The position numbers and the translations under genes were made by a program. This document shows, piece by piece, positions 21,810 to 31,368 of a DNA stretch of 60,261 bases (its first letter is position 1; every line of letters begins with the position of its first letter). Below the pieces are notes generated by a model. The model did no database searches and was not told where the DNA came from. It saw only the letters and a list, made by a program, of their open reading frames with translations. The DNA is from Fibrobacteria bacterium (GTDB taxonomy: Bacteria; Fibrobacterota; Fibrobacteria; UBA5070), in NCBI GenBank assembly GCA_035604215.1, contig DATNIW010000104.1, positions 1 through 60,261 on the forward strand, given 5' to 3'.

Positions 21810-22508
21810 ATGCGCATCCGCCTTACGCCCGTCTTGTTGGCTTTCGCCGCTGTCCAAGCGGTGGAGATCGTTCCCCCCTCCCCCTACATGTCCTCTCCGC
21901 CACCGGTGCAGGCGGACACCAGCGTGATCGATCCCGGACGGTTGCCCAAGGTCTACACCGTGGAACCCGGCATCAAGGAACAATGGTTCTCGGGCTGGAA
22001 CCTCACCAGCGACCATCCCCTGTCCGCACCCTTGGGGATCGAAGCGCCTCAACGGGACAAGGTGACCTTCCATGTCGCATTCAACGACCATGGGTGGCCC
22101 ACGGACGTGAACTACTTCGACGCCTCCGGCTCGCCCCGCTGGACCAAGCTGTTCCGGTATCCCACCAAGATTCCAGGCGGGCCTGGAGACGTCTCCTTCA
22201 CTTCGACCTGGATCAATTCCAAGGGCGAGGCCGTCTCGATGTCCGACATCGCGTCCACCTACAAGGCCACGAGCTGGAAGTTGGGCCTGAAGAAGTACAA
22301 GGTTTCCGATCTCCTCGGCGAGCCCATGCTGGTGGACCGTTCGACGGGATCCGGCGTGGTCGCGGAGGTCTGGAGCTACCTGGTGGACGGGCAGGAAGTC
22401 CGTTTCTCCTTCGACAAGGACAACAAGCTCGTGGCCCTTCCGGCCTACGCCGAAGTGGCAGCGCCGGTCGACGAGGCCAAGCCCGCGGGGACCTCCACCA
22501 AGAAATAG
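21810..22508 (+). CDS. Hypothetical secreted protein with C-terminal SmpA/BamE-like domain
   Basis: GGAGG RBS; signal peptide; KVSDLLGEP...EVWSY...VRFSFDKDNKLV pattern. Confidence 0.65.
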   Translation: MRIRLTPVLLAFAAVQAVEIVPPSPYMSSPPPVQADTSVIDPGRLPKVYTVEPGIKEQWFSGWNLTSDHPLSAPLGIEAPQRDKVTFHVAFNDHGWPTDVNYFDASGSPRWTKLFRYPTKIPGGPGDVSFTSTWINSKGEAVSMSDIASTYKATSWKLGLKKYKVSDLLGEPMLVDRSTGSGVVAEVWSYLVDGQEVRFSFDKDNKLVALPAYAEVAAPVDEAKPAGTSTKK

Positions 22509-22574: not shown

Positions 22575-23462
22575 TCAATTCCTGACCCAGGGGAAGACCT
22601 CGAGTCCCGAGACGAGGCGGGGACCCGATTCTCCCCACTCCATGGGGCGAGGCAGCAGGTGGCCGAGCTCCCGGCTTGTCGTGAGTCGTCCCGCCCGTTT
22701 GAGGGACTCCAGGAGCGCCACCATGGTCCGGAAGGCGCGCCCGGGCTCGAGCCGAGGGTCTCGAACCTCCCATTCCAGGGGATCCAAGCGGACCTGGGCC
22801 AGGGAATCCAGTCCGTTCGCTGCGCAGCAATCGACGACCAGGGCGCTTTCGTAGCCCCCTGTCAGGGCCAAGGGAAGCTCGCGGATCGCGGAAGTTCGCA
22901 ACGCCAGCAGAGGCGTGGTGGGATCGACGACCACGGCGAGGTCGGGATGGAGGGCCGAAAGAACCGGCCGCGTGCCCAAGGCCGACAGCGGGCCTCCGTC
23001 GATCTGCGATGCCCCAAGGCACAGCTTGACGTCCGGATCGTCCAACAGCACCCGGACCATGGTCGCGATCCCGGCCACGTCCAACCGGATCAAGTCGGCC
23101 GGCAGAACCAGAAGGATGTCGGATTTCGTCTGCTTCAGGGCGCGGGCGAGACCGTCCCCGTCGGCGGAGGGGTCCAAGGCTGCGGCGAGCCGATCGGCGG
23201 GCTCCAGGATCGTGGCTCCATGCTCCCGTCCGATCTCCAGGGTGGTGTCCGTGCTGCCCAGGTCGGCCACCAGGATTTCGGACCACGGGGCGGTCCCCTT
23301 CGGCCAGCCGTGTTTGAGCAGGAGCAGATGCCTGCCGAGAGTGGCGGCCGCGTTTCGCGCCAGGATGCACAGGTCGATCCGGACCTCCGACCCCCGCAGT
23401 CGGGATGCCGCGTCCCGCGAGGGCAGGAACGAGTTGCGGAAAAGCCAGGCTTCGGGCGTCAT
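22575..23462 (-). CDS. GpgS-like (glucosyl-3-phosphoglycerate synthase fold, GT-A) protein with degenerate active site
   Basis: EILVADLGSTDTT, RPVLSALHPDL, GLDSLAQVRL match GpgS family layout; DxD reads PAD; start ATG 23462 overlaps upstream stop. Confidence 0.75.
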   Translation of the reverse strand: MTPEAWLFRNSFLPSRDAASRLRGSEVRIDLCILARNAAATLGRHLLLLKHGWPKGTAPWSEILVADLGSTDTTLEIGREHGATILEPADRLAAALDPSADGDGLARALKQTKSDILLVLPADLIRLDVAGIATMVRVLLDDPDVKLCLGASQIDGGPLSALGTRPVLSALHPDLAVVVDPTTPLLALRTSAIRELPLALTGGYESALVVDCCAANGLDSLAQVRLDPLEWEVRDPRLEPGRAFRTMVALLESLKRAGRLTTSRELGHLLPRPMEWGESGPRLVSGLEVFPWVRN

Positions 23463-24583
23463 GGGGTGTTCCGCCCCGCCACCTGGACGAGCACGGCGTA
23501 GGCCTGCCGCAGCCCGAGGGGAAGGCTGTCCAGATACAGGGTCTCCATGTGGGTCTCCAGACCCACCACGCTCGCCAAACCGATGGTCACGGCGGCAACT
23601 CCGTAGTGCAGGCAGACCGATGCATCCGAACTCGACGCTCCAAGACGCGGGACCAGTCCCGCCCAGCTCTGCGCCTCCCGAGTTCCGATCACCAACGGGT
23701 GGTCGGGGTACAGTCCGGTGGCATGGCGGAACCCCTTCTGGGACAGTTCCGCCCGGCAACCCGACAATCCCTTGCACAGGGTGCCGGCCGCGCGCTGGGC
23801 TTCGCGGATGAGTCGCTGCAATTCCTCTTCCCCGTCCGACCGGAGTTCGAAGCGCAACACCGCCTTGGAGGGAAGCGTGTTCCACGCGTCGCCGGATTCC
23901 AGTTGGGCCGGGTTGTAGAGGGTTCTCGGGAATCCGGGCTTGTGGATGGCTTCCATCTGGCTGGAGAATTCCATGGCCAGACGAAGGGCGTTGGGACGAC
24001 CCGAATCGCGCCAGCAGTGGCCTCCGGGAGCCCAGACGGCGAGTTCCCCGCGGTAGGTCCCCACCGACCAATGGTCCAACCGGCCCAAACCCGGTCCCTG
24101 GAGGCAGACCACCCGTTCGGCGACGGTGGGAAGCCATGGGAACAGATGGCAGATGCCGCGCAGATCGCCGGACATCTCCGAACCCACGGTGGCGACGAAC
24201 CAGATGTCGCCCAATCCCTGGACTTGACGTTCCCGGAGGGTACGGGCCAGGGCCACCAGCACCGCCAAGGCGATGGACTGGCCGGCGATGCCGGGTCCCG
24301 TCAGGCGGTCGGGTCGGACCTGGATGTGGGGGTGGTCGATCGAGTCGTACCAGGAATCCAGGGGCGCCAGCACCACGGTTCCGGGTCTGCCCTTCGTCCC
24401 TGCCAGGACCGAGGCCACATTTCCCGCCTGGTCGACACGGGCCATGCCCAGCGCTTCTTCCAGCAGGTAGCGGACGCTTTGGGCCCTGGCTTCCTCGAAA
24501 CCGGTCGGAGCCGGAATCTCGGCCAACTGGACGGCTTGGGCCACGATGCGCGGGACCTCCGACTCCAGCAGGGTCAGGCCCAT
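23459..24583 (-). CDS. M20/M25/M40 metallopeptidase-fold protein lacking zinc ligands
   Basis: EIPAPTGFEEARA, GNV, PGI, FVATVG.E..GDLRG, PGGH.W...G.P.A, ELRS; start uncertain (24583 or 24625). Confidence 0.75.
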   Translation of the reverse strand: MGLTLLESEVPRIVAQAVQLAEIPAPTGFEEARAQSVRYLLEEALGMARVDQAGNVASVLAGTKGRPGTVVLAPLDSWYDSIDHPHIQVRPDRLTGPGIAGQSIALAVLVALARTLRERQVQGLGDIWFVATVGSEMSGDLRGICHLFPWLPTVAERVVCLQGPGLGRLDHWSVGTYRGELAVWAPGGHCWRDSGRPNALRLAMEFSSQMEAIHKPGFPRTLYNPAQLESGDAWNTLPSKAVLRFELRSDGEEELQRLIREAQRAAGTLCKGLSGCRAELSQKGFRHATGLYPDHPLVIGTREAQSWAGLVPRLGASSSDASVCLHYGVAAVTIGLASVVGLETHMETLYLDSLPLGLRQAYAVLVQVAGRNTP

Positions 24584-24670
24584 CCAGAAACCGGGTCGAC
24601 TGGAGGCTTCCGGAATGCTCAGCAAGGGGAAACGCTCAAGTCCGACGAGAATTCGACCGATGGGAGCAAC

Positions 24671-24844
24671 ATGGACCCTTCTTCCGTTTCCATGTCAGCC
24701 AACGGCAGTGGCTTGGTGGGCCAGATCCAGGTTTCGCTCCTCAAGACGAGCCAGGACCAGCAGGCCAGCCAAGTCGCGCAACTCCTCCAGTCCGCCCAGG
24801 TGAGTCCGGCGAATTTGGGAAAAGCGATCGACGTCACCGCCTGA
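24671..24844 (+). CDS. YjfB-family small protein (putative motility protein)
   Basis: 57 aa, GGGAG RBS; SLLKTSQDQQASQVAQLLQS...NLGKAIDVTA matches YjfB pattern; appears only as tail of a shadow ORF in the supplied track. Confidence 0.75.
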   Translation: MDPSSVSMSANGSGLVGQIQVSLLKTSQDQQASQVAQLLQSAQVSPANLGKAIDVTA

Positions 24845-25289
24845 GCTCCAGCGGGCTCCTTCCCCCCCGACTTCCACCCCGCAGTCCCGGGGGTGGGGAG
24901 AGGATGACCTGTGCCAGGACCAGATCGCGCAATTCCGGAAGGATCGTCTCCGGAAGGCGTGGAGTGGGATCCGCGGGAATTTCCGATAACGCGGAGATCG
25001 GTTTGTAGGCGATTGGCGGCGTGGACCCGATCCCGCGCCGGATCGCCGGGATCGGCACCGTTTCCGAACCGGTTTCCCGCGAAGGCAGGGGTTCCGGAAC
25101 CGGCTGGGATTCCAGGACCGGCTCGGGTCGAGGCTCCCACCAGGAATTCTCCGGCTGGCTTTCCGTGGCGACCGGCCCCGCGGGTCGCGGGTCCTGGGTC
25201 TTCGCCTTCTTTCGCCAAGCCTTGACGACCTGGTATCCCACCACCGCCACCAGGACCAGGATCTTGAACAGGCCGACGGAATCGTGCAT
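24834..25289 (-). CDS. YqfB-like membrane-anchored protein (floA operon)
   Basis: N-terminal TM, Pro/Glu-rich linker, C-terminal LVLAQVILSPP motif; 3 bp after floA stop. Confidence 0.65.
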   Translation of the reverse strand: MHDSVGLFKILVLVAVVGYQVVKAWRKKAKTQDPRPAGPVATESQPENSWWEPRPEPVLESQPVPEPLPSRETGSETVPIPAIRRGIGSTPPIAYKPISALSEIPADPTPRLPETILPELRDLVLAQVILSPPPGLRGGSRGGRSPLELRR

Positions 25290-25292
25290 CCG

Positions 25293-26273
25293 CTACACCT
25301 TGGGCGGAAGTTCCTTGCCCTGCGACAAGGATTGGCGCATTTCCGTATCGGCCTGGAGATTCCGGAGCCCGTAGTAGTCCATCACCCCGATCTTGCCGGT
25401 GCGCAGCGCCTCGGCCATGGCCATGGGAATCTGGGCTTCGGCCTCCACCAGGCGGGAGCGCATCTCCTGGATGCGCGCCAGGTTCTCCTGCTCCAGGGCG
25501 ATGGCCATGGCGCGGCGCTCCTCGGCCTTGGCCTGAGCGATGTTCTTGTCGGCATTGGCCTGGTCCATCTGGAGCTTGGCCCCGATGTTCACGCCCACCT
25601 CGACGTCCGCGATGTCGATGGACAGGATCTCGTAGGCCGTGCCCGCGTCCAATCCCTTGCCGAGAACGGTCTTGGAGATCGAATCCGGATGCTCCAGCAC
25701 GTCCTTGTGCGATTCGGCCGACCCGATTGTGGAAACGATGCCTTCGCCCACGCGGGCCAGGATGGTGGCTTCCCCCGCACCGCCGACCAGGCGGTCGATG
25801 TTGGTGCGCACGGTGACGCGTGCCAGGGCCTTCACCTGGATGCCGTCCTTGGCCATGGCCGCGACCACCGGGGTCTCGATCACCTTGGGGTTCACGGACA
25901 TCTGCACTGCTTCCAGGACGTTGCGACCGGCGAGATCGATGGCCGTGGCCTGCTTGAAGTTCAGGGGGATGCTCGCCTTGTCCGCCGCGATCAGCGACTG
26001 GACCACCCGCATCACGTTTCCGCCGGCCAGGAAATGGGCTTCCAGCAGGCCCACCGGGATCTCGATGCCGGCCTTCACGGCCATGATCTTCGAGGTCACG
26101 ATCAGGCGTGGATTCACCCTCCGGATCCGCATCCCCACCATGGACAGCAGGCCCACGTGCGCTCCGGAGAACAACGCCTGGATCCAGAGTCCCAGGAAAT
26201 TGAAGACCAGGACGACGACGACCAGGAGGAGAATGACGAGGACGACGATCAGGGCGGTGGAAATGTCAGGCAT
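25293..26273 (-). CDS. floA: Flotillin-like protein FloA (UPF0365/YqfA)
   Basis: [75 protein letters not shown]; GGAGG RBS. Confidence 0.97.
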
Positions 26274-26325: not shown

Positions 26326-26784
26326 CTACGGCAAGGGGCGAACCAGAAGTCTCCCTTTTTCCTCTCCCACCACGCGCGCGGTTTCGCCGGGCTCCACGAA
26401 GCGTCCGGTGGACCTCGCTTCGTGACGGATCCCGTCCAAAACGACGCGCCCGACCGGCCGCAGGCCGGTCTCGGCGACGACGGCCTTCCCGATCACGGAG
26501 GGATCGCCGGGATTTTCGCCGCTGTCCAGGTGTTCCTGGAGAGCGAGTCGCGATCTCGCCACCTTCCCCACCCCCCACCAGCCCAGCAGCGGGAACAGGA
26601 CCAGGTCGGCCAGGCCGAAGGTCCAACCCAGGCCAGCGGAATGCCCGAACGCCACGGCCAGGGAACCGATCAGGGTCCCGACGGTGGCGATGGCCAGAAG
26701 GCCTCCGGAGGGAAGGAAGATCTCGGCGAGCAGGAGCGCCGCGGAGACGATCTGCAGGACGGTGGCCAAGGTGGCGTCGTTCAC
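26326..26784 (-). CDS. Short NfeD-like protein (TM + C-terminal OB fold)
   Basis: LLAEIFLPSGGLL, G.AVVAETGLRPVGRV.LDG..HEARS.G.FV..G; GTG start overlaps upstream stop. Confidence 0.85.
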   Translation of the reverse strand: MNDATLATVLQIVSAALLLAEIFLPSGGLLAIATVGTLIGSLAVAFGHSAGLGWTFGLADLVLFPLLGWWGVGKVARSRLALQEHLDSGENPGDPSVIGKAVVAETGLRPVGRVVLDGIRHEARSTGRFVEPGETARVVGEEKGRLLVRPLP

Positions 26785-28262
26785 GCGTCGGCCACGGGTT
26801 CCACCAGGAATTCGGTGCCTCGACGCCCGGTGATGCGGACACGGGTTCCCGCCACCAGCATCCCGGTGATGGAGATGGCCGGGAATTCCCGACCGTCGAT
26901 GTCGATGCTGCCCACCGGTCGAAGGACGGAACGGACCGTCGCGAGGCTGCCGGTCAGGGCGTCGGGAGGTGGGGAGATGTCCGCTGGCATGTCGGCCAGG
27001 GTGGCCTTCAGGTAGGGGCCCTCGTGCAGGGGAAGCAAAGGAACCAGCCATCGCACCGCCGCGATGCTCAGCACACCTGCGCCAAGCGCGCTGGCGAGGA
27101 CCGTGATCAGGCTGTGGCGCATCTGGATGGCCTGCCAAGGGAGTTTGGGGTCGGGGAGAGCGAACCCCTGCAGGGAAAACACCAGCGCCACCAGCAGGCA
27201 ACCCAGTCCCGCGAAGGCCAGGACCACGGTTCCGGGAAAGAGCAGGATCTCCACCGCCACCAGCAGGACGCCGATGCCGGCCAGCACCAGCGCCGTGTAG
27301 GAGGCCATCCCGAGCAGGAATTGGGAACCCAGGGCCAGGGCCAGGAAGAGGGCGCCCGCGACCCCGAAGATCGCGGTGCCCGGCATCTTGTACTCCAGGT
27401 AGAGCCCGGCGAGACCCAAGACCAGGAAGATGCCCACGTAGTTGGAGAGCCATCGAAGCGAGGACTCGCTCCAGGTGGGATCCAGTCGCTTGGCCTCGCT
27501 CCACCCCAGGGCCTTTTCCATGGCGGGAAGGTCGGCGTAGGTCCCGCCCGAGAATCCCCATTTGGCCGCTTCCTGGTCGTCGAAGGTCAGGAGCTGACCT
27601 TCCGGCACCACCGTGACGGGGTCGTGGTAGCGGGCGCGGGCGGAATCGTCCAGGCCTTCCCACGACTGCTCGGTGAACCAGGCGAGGTTTCCGTCCCGGT
27701 CCTTGGCGCAGAGGGCGGACAGGTCCTTGGACACCATCTTCTCGGCGAGTTCGGCGGGCAGGTGGGAGCGTCTCGCCAAGGCTCGGAAACGCGCCCTGAG
27801 GGGGCTTTCGACCTTCTCGCCCACGAAGATCGGGCCGGTTTCCGACTGCACGATGGGAGCGCAGTCGCCGATGGTGGCGCCCGGGGCCATGTACACCCGC
27901 TGGGTGGAGAGCGCGATGAGGGCGCCGGCCGAAATGGCCTTTCGGGCCACGAAGGCGGCCGTGGAACAGGTCTTGATGGAGGTGATGGCGTCCGAGATCT
28001 CGAAGGCGGCGTCGAGTTGTCCGCCCCAGGTGTCGATGTCGAACACCACCATGTCCGGGTGCGCGGCCACCGCGTCCGCGATGGCCCGTTTCACGAAGTG
28101 TTCCAGGCCTCCGTCGATCTCGCCGTGGATGGGCACCACCTGGATGGTCCGGATCCCCGGGAGCGGACCCGCAGGAGGGGCCGAAGCGGCGGAGACGGAG
28201 GTGCCGCCCCATCCGAGGGCTGCGGCGAGGAGGAACGGCTGGACGACGGCACGGTGGTTCAC
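26781..28262 (-). CDS. nfeD: Long NfeD (ClpP-class serine protease + TM + OB fold)
   Basis: IHGEIDGG, IDTWGG, AISAGALIAL (Ser), GEKVES (Lys), EYKMPG..FG, LRPVGSI.IDG; GTG start 28262. Confidence 0.9.
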   Translation of the reverse strand: MNHRAVVQPFLLAAALGWGGTSVSAASAPPAGPLPGIRTIQVVPIHGEIDGGLEHFVKRAIADAVAAHPDMVVFDIDTWGGQLDAAFEISDAITSIKTCSTAAFVARKAISAGALIALSTQRVYMAPGATIGDCAPIVQSETGPIFVGEKVESPLRARFRALARRSHLPAELAEKMVSKDLSALCAKDRDGNLAWFTEQSWEGLDDSARARYHDPVTVVPEGQLLTFDDQEAAKWGFSGGTYADLPAMEKALGWSEAKRLDPTWSESSLRWLSNYVGIFLVLGLAGLYLEYKMPGTAIFGVAGALFLALALGSQFLLGMASYTALVLAGIGVLLVAVEILLFPGTVVLAFAGLGCLLVALVFSLQGFALPDPKLPWQAIQMRHSLITVLASALGAGVLSIAAVRWLVPLLPLHEGPYLKATLADMPADISPPPDALTGSLATVRSVLRPVGSIDIDGREFPAISITGMLVAGTRVRITGRRGTEFLVEPVADA

Positions 28263-28311
28263 GCCCTGGAAGATACCTCCGCGAAGGGGACCCGGGCCCT
28301 GGGGATCTCCG

Positions 28312-28977
28312 TCAACCGGCGAACGGCAGGACCCCCACCAGGATGGACAGGAAATGGCAAACGCTCCCGCCCAGCACGAACAGGTGCCACACCGCGTGGC
28401 CGAAGGCGAGCCTCTTGTCCAACACGTAGAACGCCGCCCCGAGGGAATAGGCGAGACCCCCGGAAAGCAGCAGGACCATCCCCGCCGGAGGGAGCGCGGC
28501 GGCCAGCGGACGGACCACCGCGAGCATGGTCCAGCCCATGGCCAGATAGAGCAGGGTGGACAGGATCTTGAACCGACCGGTGAAGAACGCGTCGGCCACC
28601 ATCCCCGCTCCGGCAAGCCCCCAGACGATTCCCAACACCGTCCAGCCCAGCGGGCCGCGCAGATTGACCAGCATGAAGGGGGTGTAGGTCCCGGCGATCA
28701 GCAGGTGGATCGACATGTGGTCCAGGATGCGCAGGATCTTCCGGACCCCGGGCCGGTGGGCGGCATGGTAGAGGGAGGACGCCGCGTAGAGGAGGACCAG
28801 GCAGGTCCCGAAGATGCTGACGGACACGATCTTCCAGGGATCGCCGCCGCGGCTGGCCAACACCACCAGGACCGCCGTCCCCGCGACGCCCATTCCCGTC
28901 CCGGCGGCGTGGCTGAGGCTGTTGGCCATGTCCTCCAGGTCCAGCAGGGCGGAGGATTTCGCGACTCGTGCCTCCAT
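28312..28977 (-). CDS. Hemolysin III/PAQR (TrhA-like) membrane protein
   Basis: ANSLSH, SSLYH, LDHMSIHLLIAGTYTP, YLAMGW, HAVWHLFVLGG. Confidence 0.95.
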   Translation of the reverse strand: MEARVAKSSALLDLEDMANSLSHAAGTGMGVAGTAVLVVLASRGGDPWKIVSVSIFGTCLVLLYAASSLYHAAHRPGVRKILRILDHMSIHLLIAGTYTPFMLVNLRGPLGWTVLGIVWGLAGAGMVADAFFTGRFKILSTLLYLAMGWTMLAVVRPLAAALPPAGMVLLLSGGLAYSLGAAFYVLDKRLAFGHAVWHLFVLGGSVCHFLSILVGVLPFAG

Positions 28978-29030: not shown

Positions 29031-29810
29031 TCAGTGCAGGGCCCAGACCAGGAGCCCGATCCCCAGCGCGAGCCTGTACCACGCGAAGGGGATGAAGCTC
29101 CTGGAGCGCACGTAGCCCAACAGCCACTGGACCACGAAGAAGGCGACCACCGTGGCCACCGCGAAGGCCGCCAGCGAATCCGGTGCAACCAATTCCTGTC
29201 CAGCACCCTGGCGGACCGCCTTGAACAGCTGGTAGCCGCCGGCCGCGAACATGGTCGGGATGCCCAGGAGGAAGGAAAATTCCACCGAGGACGAGCGCGA
29301 GACCCCGATCAGGAGCCCCGCCATCACGCAGGCCCCGGATCGGGAAGTCCCGGGAAAGGCGGCGGCCAGGAGCTGGGCCGCGGCCATCACCAGGGCGAGA
29401 TCCCATGAGAAGCCGCGGGAAGGGCGGTCGCGGATCGCGCGGCGCTCCACCAGCAGGATGACGGGCACGCCCACCAGGGTCGCGATGGCCACCGGCAGGA
29501 CGGATTCGGGAAGCTTGAGGCCCATCTTCTCCAGGGCCAGTCCTCCGATCCCGGTGATCACGAAGGACAGGAGGATCTGGAAAACCTCGGCGCGCACGGC
29601 GGGATCCCAGAACTTCAGCGCCCAATTGGCCAGCCGATGGCGGAACACCAGTGCGGAAGCCAGGATGGGCCCCACCTGCACAAGGACGTTGAAGGCGTCG
29701 CTTCGCTGGTCGTTCAGCAATTTCTCCGCGATCAGAAGGTGGCCTGTGGAAGAAACGGGGAGAAATTCGGTGGCGCCTTCCACGACGCCCAGTATGATGC
29801 TGTTGAGCAT
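29031..29810 (-). CDS. uppP: Undecaprenyl-diphosphate phosphatase
   Basis: GVVEGATEFLPVSSTGHL, PGTSRSG, EFSFLLGIP, FAWYR. Confidence 0.97.
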   Translation of the reverse strand: MLNSIILGVVEGATEFLPVSSTGHLLIAEKLLNDQRSDAFNVLVQVGPILASALVFRHRLANWALKFWDPAVRAEVFQILLSFVITGIGGLALEKMGLKLPESVLPVAIATLVGVPVILLVERRAIRDRPSRGFSWDLALVMAAAQLLAAAFPGTSRSGACVMAGLLIGVSRSSSVEFSFLLGIPTMFAAGGYQLFKAVRQGAGQELVAPDSLAAFAVATVVAFFVVQWLLGYVRSRSFIPFAWYRLALGIGLLVWALH

Positions 29811-29837
29811 GGACCCGGGAAGATAGGTTTCCCGGTC

Positions 29838-30755
29838 ATGGTACGGATCCTGGTCCTGGGCGCGAACCCCGCCTGGCAGAAGAACGCCACCTGCACCGGG
29901 TTGCGCACAGGTTCCGTGGTCCGGATGCGGACCGCCGAAGGGGGGGCGGCCGGCAAGGGCTTTAATTGCGCCTTGGCATTGGGCAGGTTGGGAAGACCCG
30001 CCGTCCTGATCTCCGGCATCGGCACGGACGGAGACGCCTGGGAACAGGCCTGCCGCGAGGAAGGGATCGCCTTGCGGGGATTCCCCCTCTCGGGGCCCGT
30101 CCGCCGCGCCACCACGCTCCGTGACCTGGAGACGGAGGAAGTCACGGAGCTCGTGGAGGAGGGGCCACCGGCGGCCGAAGGTGCCCAACGCGCGGTGGAA
30201 GAGGCGCTGGGCTCCGATCGTTCGGCTTCCGTCTGCTGCTGCGGCACCCTGGCGCAAGGCCTGGATGCCGACCGGATTCTCGCGTCGCTCTCTGCTTGGA
30301 CGGAAAACGTCATCATCGATTCCGTTCCTCTCGTGCGCGCCGCCATCTCGGGAGGCGCGGTCCCCGAACGGCTCGTCCTCAAGCTCAGCGGAGCGGAGTG
30401 GACGGACCTTTGCGGTCCCGATCCGGAATCCTCCCTGGCGATGGTCCGGGCCGTCCTGCCTCGCGCCTTCCTGGTGGCCACGGTCGGGTCGCGCGGTTCC
30501 CTGGCGGTCCCGCCCGACGGTCCCCTCTTCCGGGTGCCGGCACCGGCCATCGCCGCGGATGTCCGCGTGCATCCCATCGGGGCGGGCGATGCCTATACCG
30601 CGGGCATGGCGGCGGCCCTGGCCGGTGGGCTGGAATTCCCGGATGCCTGCCGGTGGGGCGCGGCGGCGGCGCGGGCGTCCTGCCTGGATCCGCTGCCCTC
30701 GCGGTTTTCCCGCCGGGATTTCGAGGAATCCCTGAAGCTGGTGCAGGATGCCTGA
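29838..30755 (+). CDS. PfkB-family carbohydrate kinase (1-phosphofructokinase-like)
   Basis: LGANPA, EGGAAGKGFN, PIGAGDAYTAG anion-hole motif. Confidence 0.88.
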   Translation: MVRILVLGANPAWQKNATCTGLRTGSVVRMRTAEGGAAGKGFNCALALGRLGRPAVLISGIGTDGDAWEQACREEGIALRGFPLSGPVRRATTLRDLETEEVTELVEEGPPAAEGAQRAVEEALGSDRSASVCCCGTLAQGLDADRILASLSAWTENVIIDSVPLVRAAISGGAVPERLVLKLSGAEWTDLCGPDPESSLAMVRAVLPRAFLVATVGSRGSLAVPPDGPLFRVPAPAIAADVRVHPIGAGDAYTAGMAAALAGGLEFPDACRWGAAAARASCLDPLPSRFSRRDFEESLKLVQDA

Positions 30756-31368
30756 AGGCGTGCTCCAGCCGGTCGGCCGGGTGCTCTGGGTGGCGGCCAC
30801 CCGGGCCGAGCTCGCGGGGCTTCCCGAGTCGGCATGGTCCGTGACCACGGGTTGCGGCCCGGCGGCGGCGGCGGCCGGTCTGGCCCTGGCCCTGGCGGCG
30901 GGACGACCGGACCGGATCGTGGGCGTGGGGATCGCCGGTGCCTATCCATCGTCGCCATTCCGGCCTCCCCAGGTGGTGCGGGTGGACGAGGACGCCTTCG
31001 CGGACCTGGGTGCGGAAAGCCCGTCCGGATTCCTCGACCTCTGGTCCTTGGGCGTCCCCGACCCCGGAGTCGAGAAACGTTATCTGTCCGAGGTCCCCGC
31101 CTTCCTGTCCCACCTGCCCGGCGCCCGCGGCGCCACCTGTTCCACCTGCACCGGAACCCTCGCCACGCAGCGCCTGCGCGAATCCACGGGGGCGCAGATC
31201 GAGACCATGGAGGGTGCGGCCTGGGCCCTGGTCGCGAGCCGCTGTTCCATCCCCTTCCACCAGGTCCGGGCGATCTCCAACGCGGCCGGGCCCAGGGATC
31301 GCGGTGGGTGGAGGATCCCCGAAGCCCTGTCCGCCTTGTCCACCTTCCTGGGGAGTCTCCCGAAATGA
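30748..31368 (+). CDS. mqnB: Futalosine hydrolase
   Basis: GCGPAAAA, GIAGAY, FADLG, ETMEGAA, RAISN..GPRDR..W.I..AL; next to mqnD. Confidence 0.88.
   Translation: MPEGVLQPVGRVLWVAATRAELAGLPESAWSVTTGCGPAAAAAGLALALAAGRPDRIVGVGIAGAYPSSPFRPPQVVRVDEDAFADLGAESPSGFLDLWSLGVPDPGVEKRYLSEVPAFLSHLPGARGATCSTCTGTLATQRLRESTGAQIETMEGAAWALVASRCSIPFHQVRAISNAAGPRDRGGWRIPEALSALSTFLGSLPK

Follow-up and report, generated by a model that had tools for sequence, protein, structure and literature searches.

What is maintained by selection when two adjacent genes encode proteins that keep the folds of two unrelated enzymes and have both lost the catalytic residues? This question is raised by a gene pair on contig DATNIW010000104.1 of a Fibrobacteria bacterium (GenBank assembly GCA_035604215.1). 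The whole stretch of DNA that was analysed, referred to here as the window, is 60,261 nucleotides (nt) long and has a G+C content of about 66%, and the named database matches of its proteins are from uncultured Fibrobacterota or Fibrobacteria. The two genes, designated M20L and GT81L, encode an M20-fold pseudopeptidase and a pseudo-glycosyltransferase with the GT81 (GpgS/MpgS) fold, respectively. Both genes are intact, translationally coupled and under purifying selection, and their products are best read as a putative ligand-sensing or scaffold complex. The positions of all features are given in Table 1.

M20L is related to dinuclear metallopeptidases of the M20 family. The protein matches the Pfam family M20_dimer (PF07687) at 5e-7 with a score of 30 (gathering cut-off 21), and its score with Peptidase_M20 (PF01546) is 17.2, below the gathering cut-off of 24.6. 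Its best solved relative in a search of the Protein Data Bank (PDB) is PahZ2 (7LJH), a dinuclear zinc enzyme (1e-33). An AlphaFold2 (AF2) model with a mean predicted local distance difference test (pLDDT) score of 81.5 was compared with known structures using Foldseek, which returned PahZ2 at 6.5e-37 (template modelling (TM) score about 0.7) and carboxypeptidase G2 (CPG2), PepT and DapE with TM scores of 0.68-0.74. The predicted fold is an intact two-domain M20 fold consisting of a catalytic and a dimerisation domain.

Alignment to active relatives located the substitutions in the active site of M20L. The AHxD motif is changed to APLD, with proline in place of the metal-ligand histidine, and the bridging aspartate is replaced by glycine. 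GEE is changed to GSE, in which the catalytic glutamate is replaced by serine and the second glutamate of the EE pair is retained, whereas the fourth ligand, found as IDG or LEG in active relatives, is glutamine (LQG). A census of the M20L family found the ligand histidine and the bridging aspartate in none of 41 sequences and the ligand glutamate, the serine at the catalytic position and the glutamine at the fourth ligand in all 41; one of the five metal ligands survives as an invariant residue. All metal ligands and the catalytic glutamate are retained in 26 of 26 active M20 relatives. The initial annotation, made from the window sequence alone, had listed these losses together with that of the terminal histidine. 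The former (histidine, bridging aspartate, catalytic glutamate and fourth ligand) were upheld, but the C-terminal histidine is positionally present, as shown by the alignment of ETHME in M20L to RAHSL in PahZ2. Within the window's Fibrobacteria family this histidine is not conserved, and its column lies at the 86th percentile of variability; that of the bridging aspartate lies at the 91st. Other residues are fixed (S149-E150, Q176, GGH203 and D334), and 116 of the 388 columns are invariant (about 30%; 47 distinct sequences).

GT81L scores 96.3 bits (1.7e-27) with the NCBIfam model of GpgS (NF010496), for which the curated cut-off is 262 bits, and it matches MpgS (8e-13) and GpgS (1e-10) in the PDB. 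The AF2 model has a pLDDT of 88.7, and its top 41 Foldseek matches are all MpgS or GpgS proteins of family GT81 with TM scores of 0.7-0.82. The earlier assignment of the two proteins as M20 peptidase-like and GpgS-like was correct, as judged by hidden Markov model (HMM), PDB and Foldseek matches.

The catalytic motifs of GT81L were read from alignments to GpgS of Mycobacterium tuberculosis and to intact GpgS proteins, and the residue roles in the M. tuberculosis enzyme were taken from PMC2581804. The GKGE motif is changed to ADGD, in which Lys114 is replaced by aspartate at a position that varies in the family. DSD (Asp134-Ser-Asp136) is changed to Pro-Ala-Asp, and the second aspartate is found in 20 of 42 family sequences. 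His258 is replaced by tryptophan, so the Asp-x-Asp and His258 combination that marks the metal site is absent. Glu54 is replaced by alanine, GGRVTE by GGPLSA (variable in the family) and PLSGE by PTTPL, and a 12-residue deletion takes out VKAFYDRPL. The losses read initially (GKG to ADG, DxD to PAD, GRVTE to GPLSA, and the C-terminal histidine) were all confirmed by alignment. Glu232 alone is retained from the Lys114-Asp134-Glu232 network and is invariant, as is DxGSxD, a remnant of the nucleotide subdomain. The column of Lys114 lies at the 61st percentile of variability, that of Asp136 at the 79th, that of Arg185 at the 72nd and that of Glu188 at the 84th, and the motifs PE.WL, RH..L..HGWPGG..PW and EVFPW are fixed. 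Such a combination of variable old catalytic columns and fixed new motifs, seen in both proteins, fits a loss of the old chemistry with selection acting on something else, and does not fit a re-tuning of the old catalytic site.

Homologous pairs were sought in 12 genomes of the window's Fibrobacteria family. Orthologs of M20L were found in 11 of them, with one match per genome, and the ten genomes with both M20L and GT81L all have the two genes side by side. M20L of the eleventh genome lies at a contig end, where GT81L would fall outside the contig; within a contig, neither gene was found without the other. Amino acid identity is 61-96% for M20L and 41-89% for GT81L across the family, and 70-96% and 46-89%, respectively, across the genus. 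The 4-nt overlap occurs in seven of nine orthologous loci, the other two overlapping by 11 and 14 nt, and overlap persists across lineages with saturated synonymous sites (dS > 1). The reading frames of both genes are intact in all orthologs. Ratios of nonsynonymous to synonymous substitution (dN/dS), estimated by the Nei-Gojobori method between the window and its closest relative, are 0.057 for M20L and 0.139 for GT81L; a second pair of genomes gave 0.051 and 0.089, respectively. Enzyme homology, missing catalytic residues and purifying selection, which together define a pseudoenzyme operationally, are found in both proteins. The proposal that the pair is not decaying is borne out by dN/dS of 0.05-0.14, by the invariant columns of M20L and by the conserved adjacency and overlap. 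The family is small: when 1.84 billion representatives were searched with a profile, four clusters came out at 1e-30 or better, followed by a gap and then by ordinary intact GT81 enzymes. An exact-sequence look-up of GT81L had as its sole match a 990-bp contig without gene context.

Both genes of the window are intact open reading frames (ORFs) on the minus strand and are joined by ATGA, as had been noted. The start of M20L was revised. The ATG at 24583, used initially, is most likely internal, and the gene most likely begins at a TTG 14 codons upstream, because the additional N-terminal residues MLSIPEASSRPGFW are kept in database homologs and because of the start codons of orthologs: one ortholog has no start codon where the window has this ATG, and two start with ATG at the upstream position. 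By-eye reading of the translations found the N-termini of both proteins to be neither signal-like hydrophobic nor membrane-spanning.

The initial annotation had also suggested inactive subunits of active paralogs. This candidate was rejected after searches of the window's genome and of the family. A tblastn search of the window's genome (87.5% complete) with intact GpgS, MggA-like, HAD and active M20 queries found nothing beyond the M20L-GT81L pair. The GpgS HMM was run over 41 Fibrobacteria genomes and scored above the cut-off in two distant genomes, G018 and G034 (366-383 bits). In the 12 family genomes, one of which is a closed chromosome of 5.8 Mb, the best matches score 47-95 bits, and no GpgS exceeds the cut-off. 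GT81L is itself the best match in the ten family genomes holding it (58-95 bits). As no active paralog is present in these 12 family genomes, the inactive-subunit option is largely removed.

The two distant genomes provide a possible source of the pair. In both G018 and G034, an M20-like gene without the ligands directly precedes and overlaps an intact GpgS gene, which is followed by a gene for a GT4-like protein of about 500 amino acids (aa), a gene for a HAD hydrolase and one further gene; the last gene of the G034 cluster is taken to be another glycosyltransferase. A search seeded with this type of M20-like protein returned a large family (35-62% identity) with named sources in Planctomycetes, Spirochaetaceae, Victivallaceae, Balneolaceae and others. 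The name GAM-GpgS is coined here for the module in which such an M20-like protein (GAM) is coupled to gpgS. The GAM gene lies immediately upstream of a GT2/GpgS gene encoding about 330 aa in nine of nine loci checked, including G018 and G034, from at least five phyla: Fibrobacterota, Spirochaetota, Balneolota, Lentisphaerota and Planctomycetota-like bacteria. The two genes overlap in most of these loci (one has a 38-nt gap), GT4-like and HAD genes usually come next, sometimes with a GH13 gene, and GpgS is fully intact in all six partners that were translated. The layout matches the gpgS-mggA-mggB clusters for mannosylglucosylglycerate described in PMC3736172; an M20-like gene is mentioned neither there nor in PMC2581804, both being papers on compatible solutes. 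No GT81 gene adjoins the active M20 relatives of Anaerolineae and Betaproteobacteria.

GAM proteins have lost a different set of residues. Among 120 sequences, the histidine is kept in 111, the bridging aspartate in 101 and the glutamate of the fourth ligand in 102, whereas the catalytic glutamate is replaced by serine in 112 and present in none, and the ligand glutamate is absent in all. A C-terminal IDKGxCDE motif is carried by GAM proteins. One member of this type, P0090, retains the histidine of AHLD and the bridging aspartate, has neither the EE pair nor the C-terminal histidine, and is encoded at positions 623-1792 of locus L059, where it adjoins the intact GpgS P0111. As a separate observation on GT81 proteins, P0290, P0307 and P0360 of the representative library each join a GT81/GpgS-like domain to a universal stress protein (Usp) domain, and some GT81 enzymes may thus be controlled directly by stress or nucleotides.

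The window pair resembles GAM-GpgS in the order of the M20-like and GT81 genes, in the start/stop overlap and in the serine at the catalytic glutamate (41/41 compared with 112/120). Because gene order, coupling and the Glu-to-Ser change are shared, the two modules would have a common ancestor in which the peptidase was already inactive, and the window pair would most likely be a sister of GAM-GpgS that has diverged strongly. GAM-GpgS differs from the window pair in that the transferase is intact and pathway genes follow. The two M20-like proteins keep different remnants: one metal site's His/Asp/Glu and IDKGxCDE in GAM, the second glutamate and GGH in M20L. The coordinated loss proposed initially calls for revision: both partners lost catalytic residues, but probably not at the same time, since the serine is already present in GAM proteins coupled to intact GpgS. 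Most likely the peptidase died first, while the transferase was still active, and the transferase died later and in the window's lineage only.

The reading that best accounts for these data, to which a probability of about 55% is given, is that M20L and GT81L form an obligate complex without catalytic activity, a stripped-down sister of GAM-GpgS that is maintained for a role in binding, scaffolding or regulation. The two genes would make up a bicistronic operon of their own, with translational coupling, and encode two soluble cytoplasmic proteins with M20 and GT81 GT-A folds. The ancestral reactions would be beyond both, as M20L would have neither the dinuclear metal site nor the general base, and GT81L would be without the metal site, the Lys-Asp-Glu network and the 3-phosphoglycerate site. 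The two proteins would act as an obligate hetero-complex in binding, scaffolding or regulation instead of catalysis. After divergence from a common ancestor with GAM-GpgS in which the peptidase was inactive, the two lineages would have lost different halves of the metal site, and the transferase site would have been lost only in the window's Fibrobacteria family. The two-protein unit is kept without an active GpgS in the family and without pathway genes in the window's genome, which argues for a function independent of sugar transfer. A wider version of this reading is offered tentatively: the M20-like/GT81 complex may have had an ancestral function independent of glucosylglycerate synthesis, e.g., sensing of a metabolite or stress signal and its transmission to a partner. 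In most phyla this function would be masked by the GpgS activity that it regulates, whereas in the window's Fibrobacteria family the loss of catalysis in both partners would have laid it open to separate study.

Several points weigh against the non-catalytic complex and its proposed descent. No M20-GT81 fusion occurs among the long GT81 proteins from a search of representatives, which carry Usp, GT2 or GT4 domains. M20L has a GGH motif, a second glutamate and an STD-like aspartate that are absent in GAM, and it is without the GAM C-terminus IDKGxCDE. In phylogenetic trees, GAM, the active M20 proteins and the window's family form three separate clean groups. M20L and GT81L lie on branches of 2.0 and 2.3 substitutions per site, respectively, and are nested in neither GAM nor the GAM-associated GpgS; these trees are subject to long-branch effects and composition bias. 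Descent from GAM-GpgS, which the trees neither confirm nor exclude, is drawn from gene order and one shared substitution. The inactivity of both proteins is predicted, and their invariant polar residues could form a new active site.

That last point leads to the main rival, in which one or both proteins catalyse a new reaction through the newly invariant residues and the pair forms a two-step pathway, for example with the GT-A scaffold as a transferase that needs no metal or as a nucleotidyl-binding enzyme, or with the M20 scaffold as a non-metallo hydrolase. It is the main rival because so many polar residues are invariant: H45, H51, D67, D72, D103, R126, R165, R189, E205, Q223 and H268 in GT81L, where the DxGSxD nucleotide-subsite remnant and Glu232 are also fixed, and S149, E150, Q176, H203, D334 and E361 in M20L. 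The low dN/dS is enzyme-like as well. Nevertheless, where GpgS contacts the metal, the diphosphate and the acceptor, the positions of GT81L are relaxed and not re-fixed. The new conserved motif HGWPGG of GT81L belongs to the loop that connects helix 1 to strand 2, and by GT-A topology this loop would be on the side of the protein away from the catalytic cleft. Among M20 enzymes, none is known to function on one of five ligands, and the neighbouring genes point to no substrate. New catalysis is considered unlikely. A lower probability still is given to two independent pseudoenzymes or binding proteins that are neighbours by inheritance and form no complex. The absence of a fusion and the unequal evolutionary rates seen in the identities across the genus would agree with independent action, but the 4-nt overlap has been kept despite dS > 1, the two genes are never seen apart within a contig, and the same order and overlap recur across phyla in GAM-GpgS.

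The two remaining explanations are highly improbable. Dead copies of enzymes commonly end up as inactive subunits that regulate active paralogs from other loci, yet the window's genome (87.5% complete) holds no other GT81 or close M20 relative, the 12 family genomes hold no GpgS above the cut-off, and each genome has a single M20L match. Early pseudogene decay, which would account for the lost catalytic residues, is hardly credible given the intact frames in all orthologs, the low dN/dS, the many invariant M20L columns and the confident AF2 models. The preferred reading remains the obligate non-catalytic complex.

The surroundings of the pair were analysed for its transcription unit. Upstream of M20L lies a divergent yjfB-like gene that is hidden within a spurious ORF of 479 aa and whose start and stop codons are conserved in the spacers of the family. 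The spacer of about 210 bp that had been considered as an RNA element was rejected as such, as it is this gene on the opposite strand; an Rfam scan upstream for a riboswitch or RNA element gave one sub-threshold chance match. The remaining short spacer probably holds or abuts the promoter and ribosome-binding site of the pair. A conserved GAG-type motif occurs about 12 nt upstream of the TTG, and a promoter and terminator scan found no sigma-70 consensus and no terminators above background. The yjfB-like gene is convergent, with an 11-nt overlap, to a small membrane-protein gene. In the product of the latter, a transmembrane helix at the N-terminus is followed by a linker rich in Pro and Glu and, at the C-terminus, by the conserved motif LRDxxLxQVIL.PP; equivalents occur in eight related genomes. 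The position of this gene is reminiscent of that of the small gene after floA in the yqeZ-floA-yqfB operon of Bacillus subtilis.

Synteny by tblastn found floA and nfeD upstream of the pair across the family, where the upstream order uppP/bacA, nfeD, floA and the small membrane-protein gene is conserved, whereas the order on the downstream side is not. Co-transcription with nfeD-floA was rejected as the default, since the opposite-strand yjfB-like gene intervenes; M20L-GT81L is assigned to its own bicistronic unit and is not the tail of a floA operon. An uppP/bacA gene also lies upstream, on the same strand as the pair and beyond nfeD-floA. It belongs to a 605-aa ORF in which the BacA/UppP domain covers residues 351-597 only and the N-terminal part of about 350 residues has no Pfam match; this may be an over-extended ORF or a fusion. 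On the downstream side, a 232-aa ORF convergent with the pair matches no Pfam or PADLOC family, and its only conserved counterpart (88% identity) is in the closest relative. PADLOC gave no matches that would place the locus in a defence system.

Table 1. Positions of the gene pair and its neighbours in the window, and of the GAM-GpgS modules in their own loci
Feature	Position	Strand	Evidence or remark
GT81L, GT81 (GpgS/MpgS)-fold pseudo-glycosyltransferase gene	22575..23462	(-)	295 aa; intact ORF
ATGA stop/start overlap of M20L and GT81L (translational coupling)	23459..23462	(-)	Sequence read
M20L, M20-fold pseudopeptidase gene	23459..24625	(-)	388 aa, most likely TTG start at 24625; intact ORF
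Divergent spacer between M20L and the yjfB-like gene	24626..24670	.	45 bp
YjfB_motility (PF14070) gene	24671..24844	(+)	57 aa; Pfam 3e-8, 34 bits (cut-off 27)
Single-pass membrane protein gene	24834..25289	(-)	151 aa; last gene of the nfeD-floA unit; no Pfam family
floA	25293..26273	(-)	Pfam
nfeD	26781..28616	(-)	Pfam
ORF with BacA/UppP domain	29031-30848	(-)	605 aa
ORF convergent with the pair	21810-22508	(+)	232 aa
GAM-GpgS, locus L060	6001-8173		
GAM-GpgS, locus L061	6001-8158		
GAM-GpgS, locus L062	6001-8131		
GAM-GpgS, locus L063	5001-7161		
GAM-GpgS, locus L064	5001-7150		
GAM-GpgS, locus L065	5001-7155		
GAM-GpgS, locus L059	623-2771		
GAM-GpgS, locus L022	8809-10969		
GAM-GpgS, locus L023	8462-10580		

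Dead enzymes that are kept by selection are already known, and what is unusual here is a conserved, translationally coupled pair of two unrelated folds. The pair is a clean system for asking what scaffolds do after catalysis is gone. If the wider reading with an ancestral function is correct, the pair would represent a naturally occurring module of two pseudoenzymes for signalling or scaffolding, and the M20-like protein would prove to be a GpgS subunit or regulator that has so far gone unrecognised in many bacteria. An M20-like protein without the catalytic glutamate is the conserved first gene product of gpgS and (mannosyl)glucosylglycerate operons in several phyla, and a role as GpgS subunit or regulator would change the study of glucosylglycerate synthesis and of its control by salt and nitrogen stress. 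This cross-phylum dead partner of GpgS may be a more broadly useful lead than the window pair.

Compared with known systems, M20L has the same two-domain fold with a dimerisation domain as the dinuclear M20 peptidases PahZ2, PepT, carboxypeptidase G2 and DapE, and it retains their GDLRG, GGH and STD-like motifs. It differs from them in that the histidine is replaced by proline or alanine, the bridging aspartate is variable, the catalytic glutamate is replaced by serine and the fourth ligand by glutamine. GT81L shares the GT-A/GT81 fold (TM 0.75-0.82) of GpgS from M. tuberculosis (Rv1208; 3E25/4Y6N) and MpgS from Rubrobacter xylanophilus (3F1Y/3O3P), and keeps the N-terminal W-L motif, DxGSxD, the RP.L helix, Glu232 and the glutamine of AQxDL. 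It is without their Glu54, Lys114, Asp134, His258, GGRVTE, PLSGE and 12-residue loop; Asp136 is present in the window protein and unconserved in the family, and the window's genome has no phosphatase or MggA partner. The ectodomain of the transferrin receptor is a metallopeptidase-fold pseudoenzyme, with an M28-like fold that is without the ligands. The window pair resembles it in that a peptidase scaffold without its metal ligands would have been turned to binding, but the lineage and context are unrelated, and the window pair couples two dead enzymes that differ in fold.

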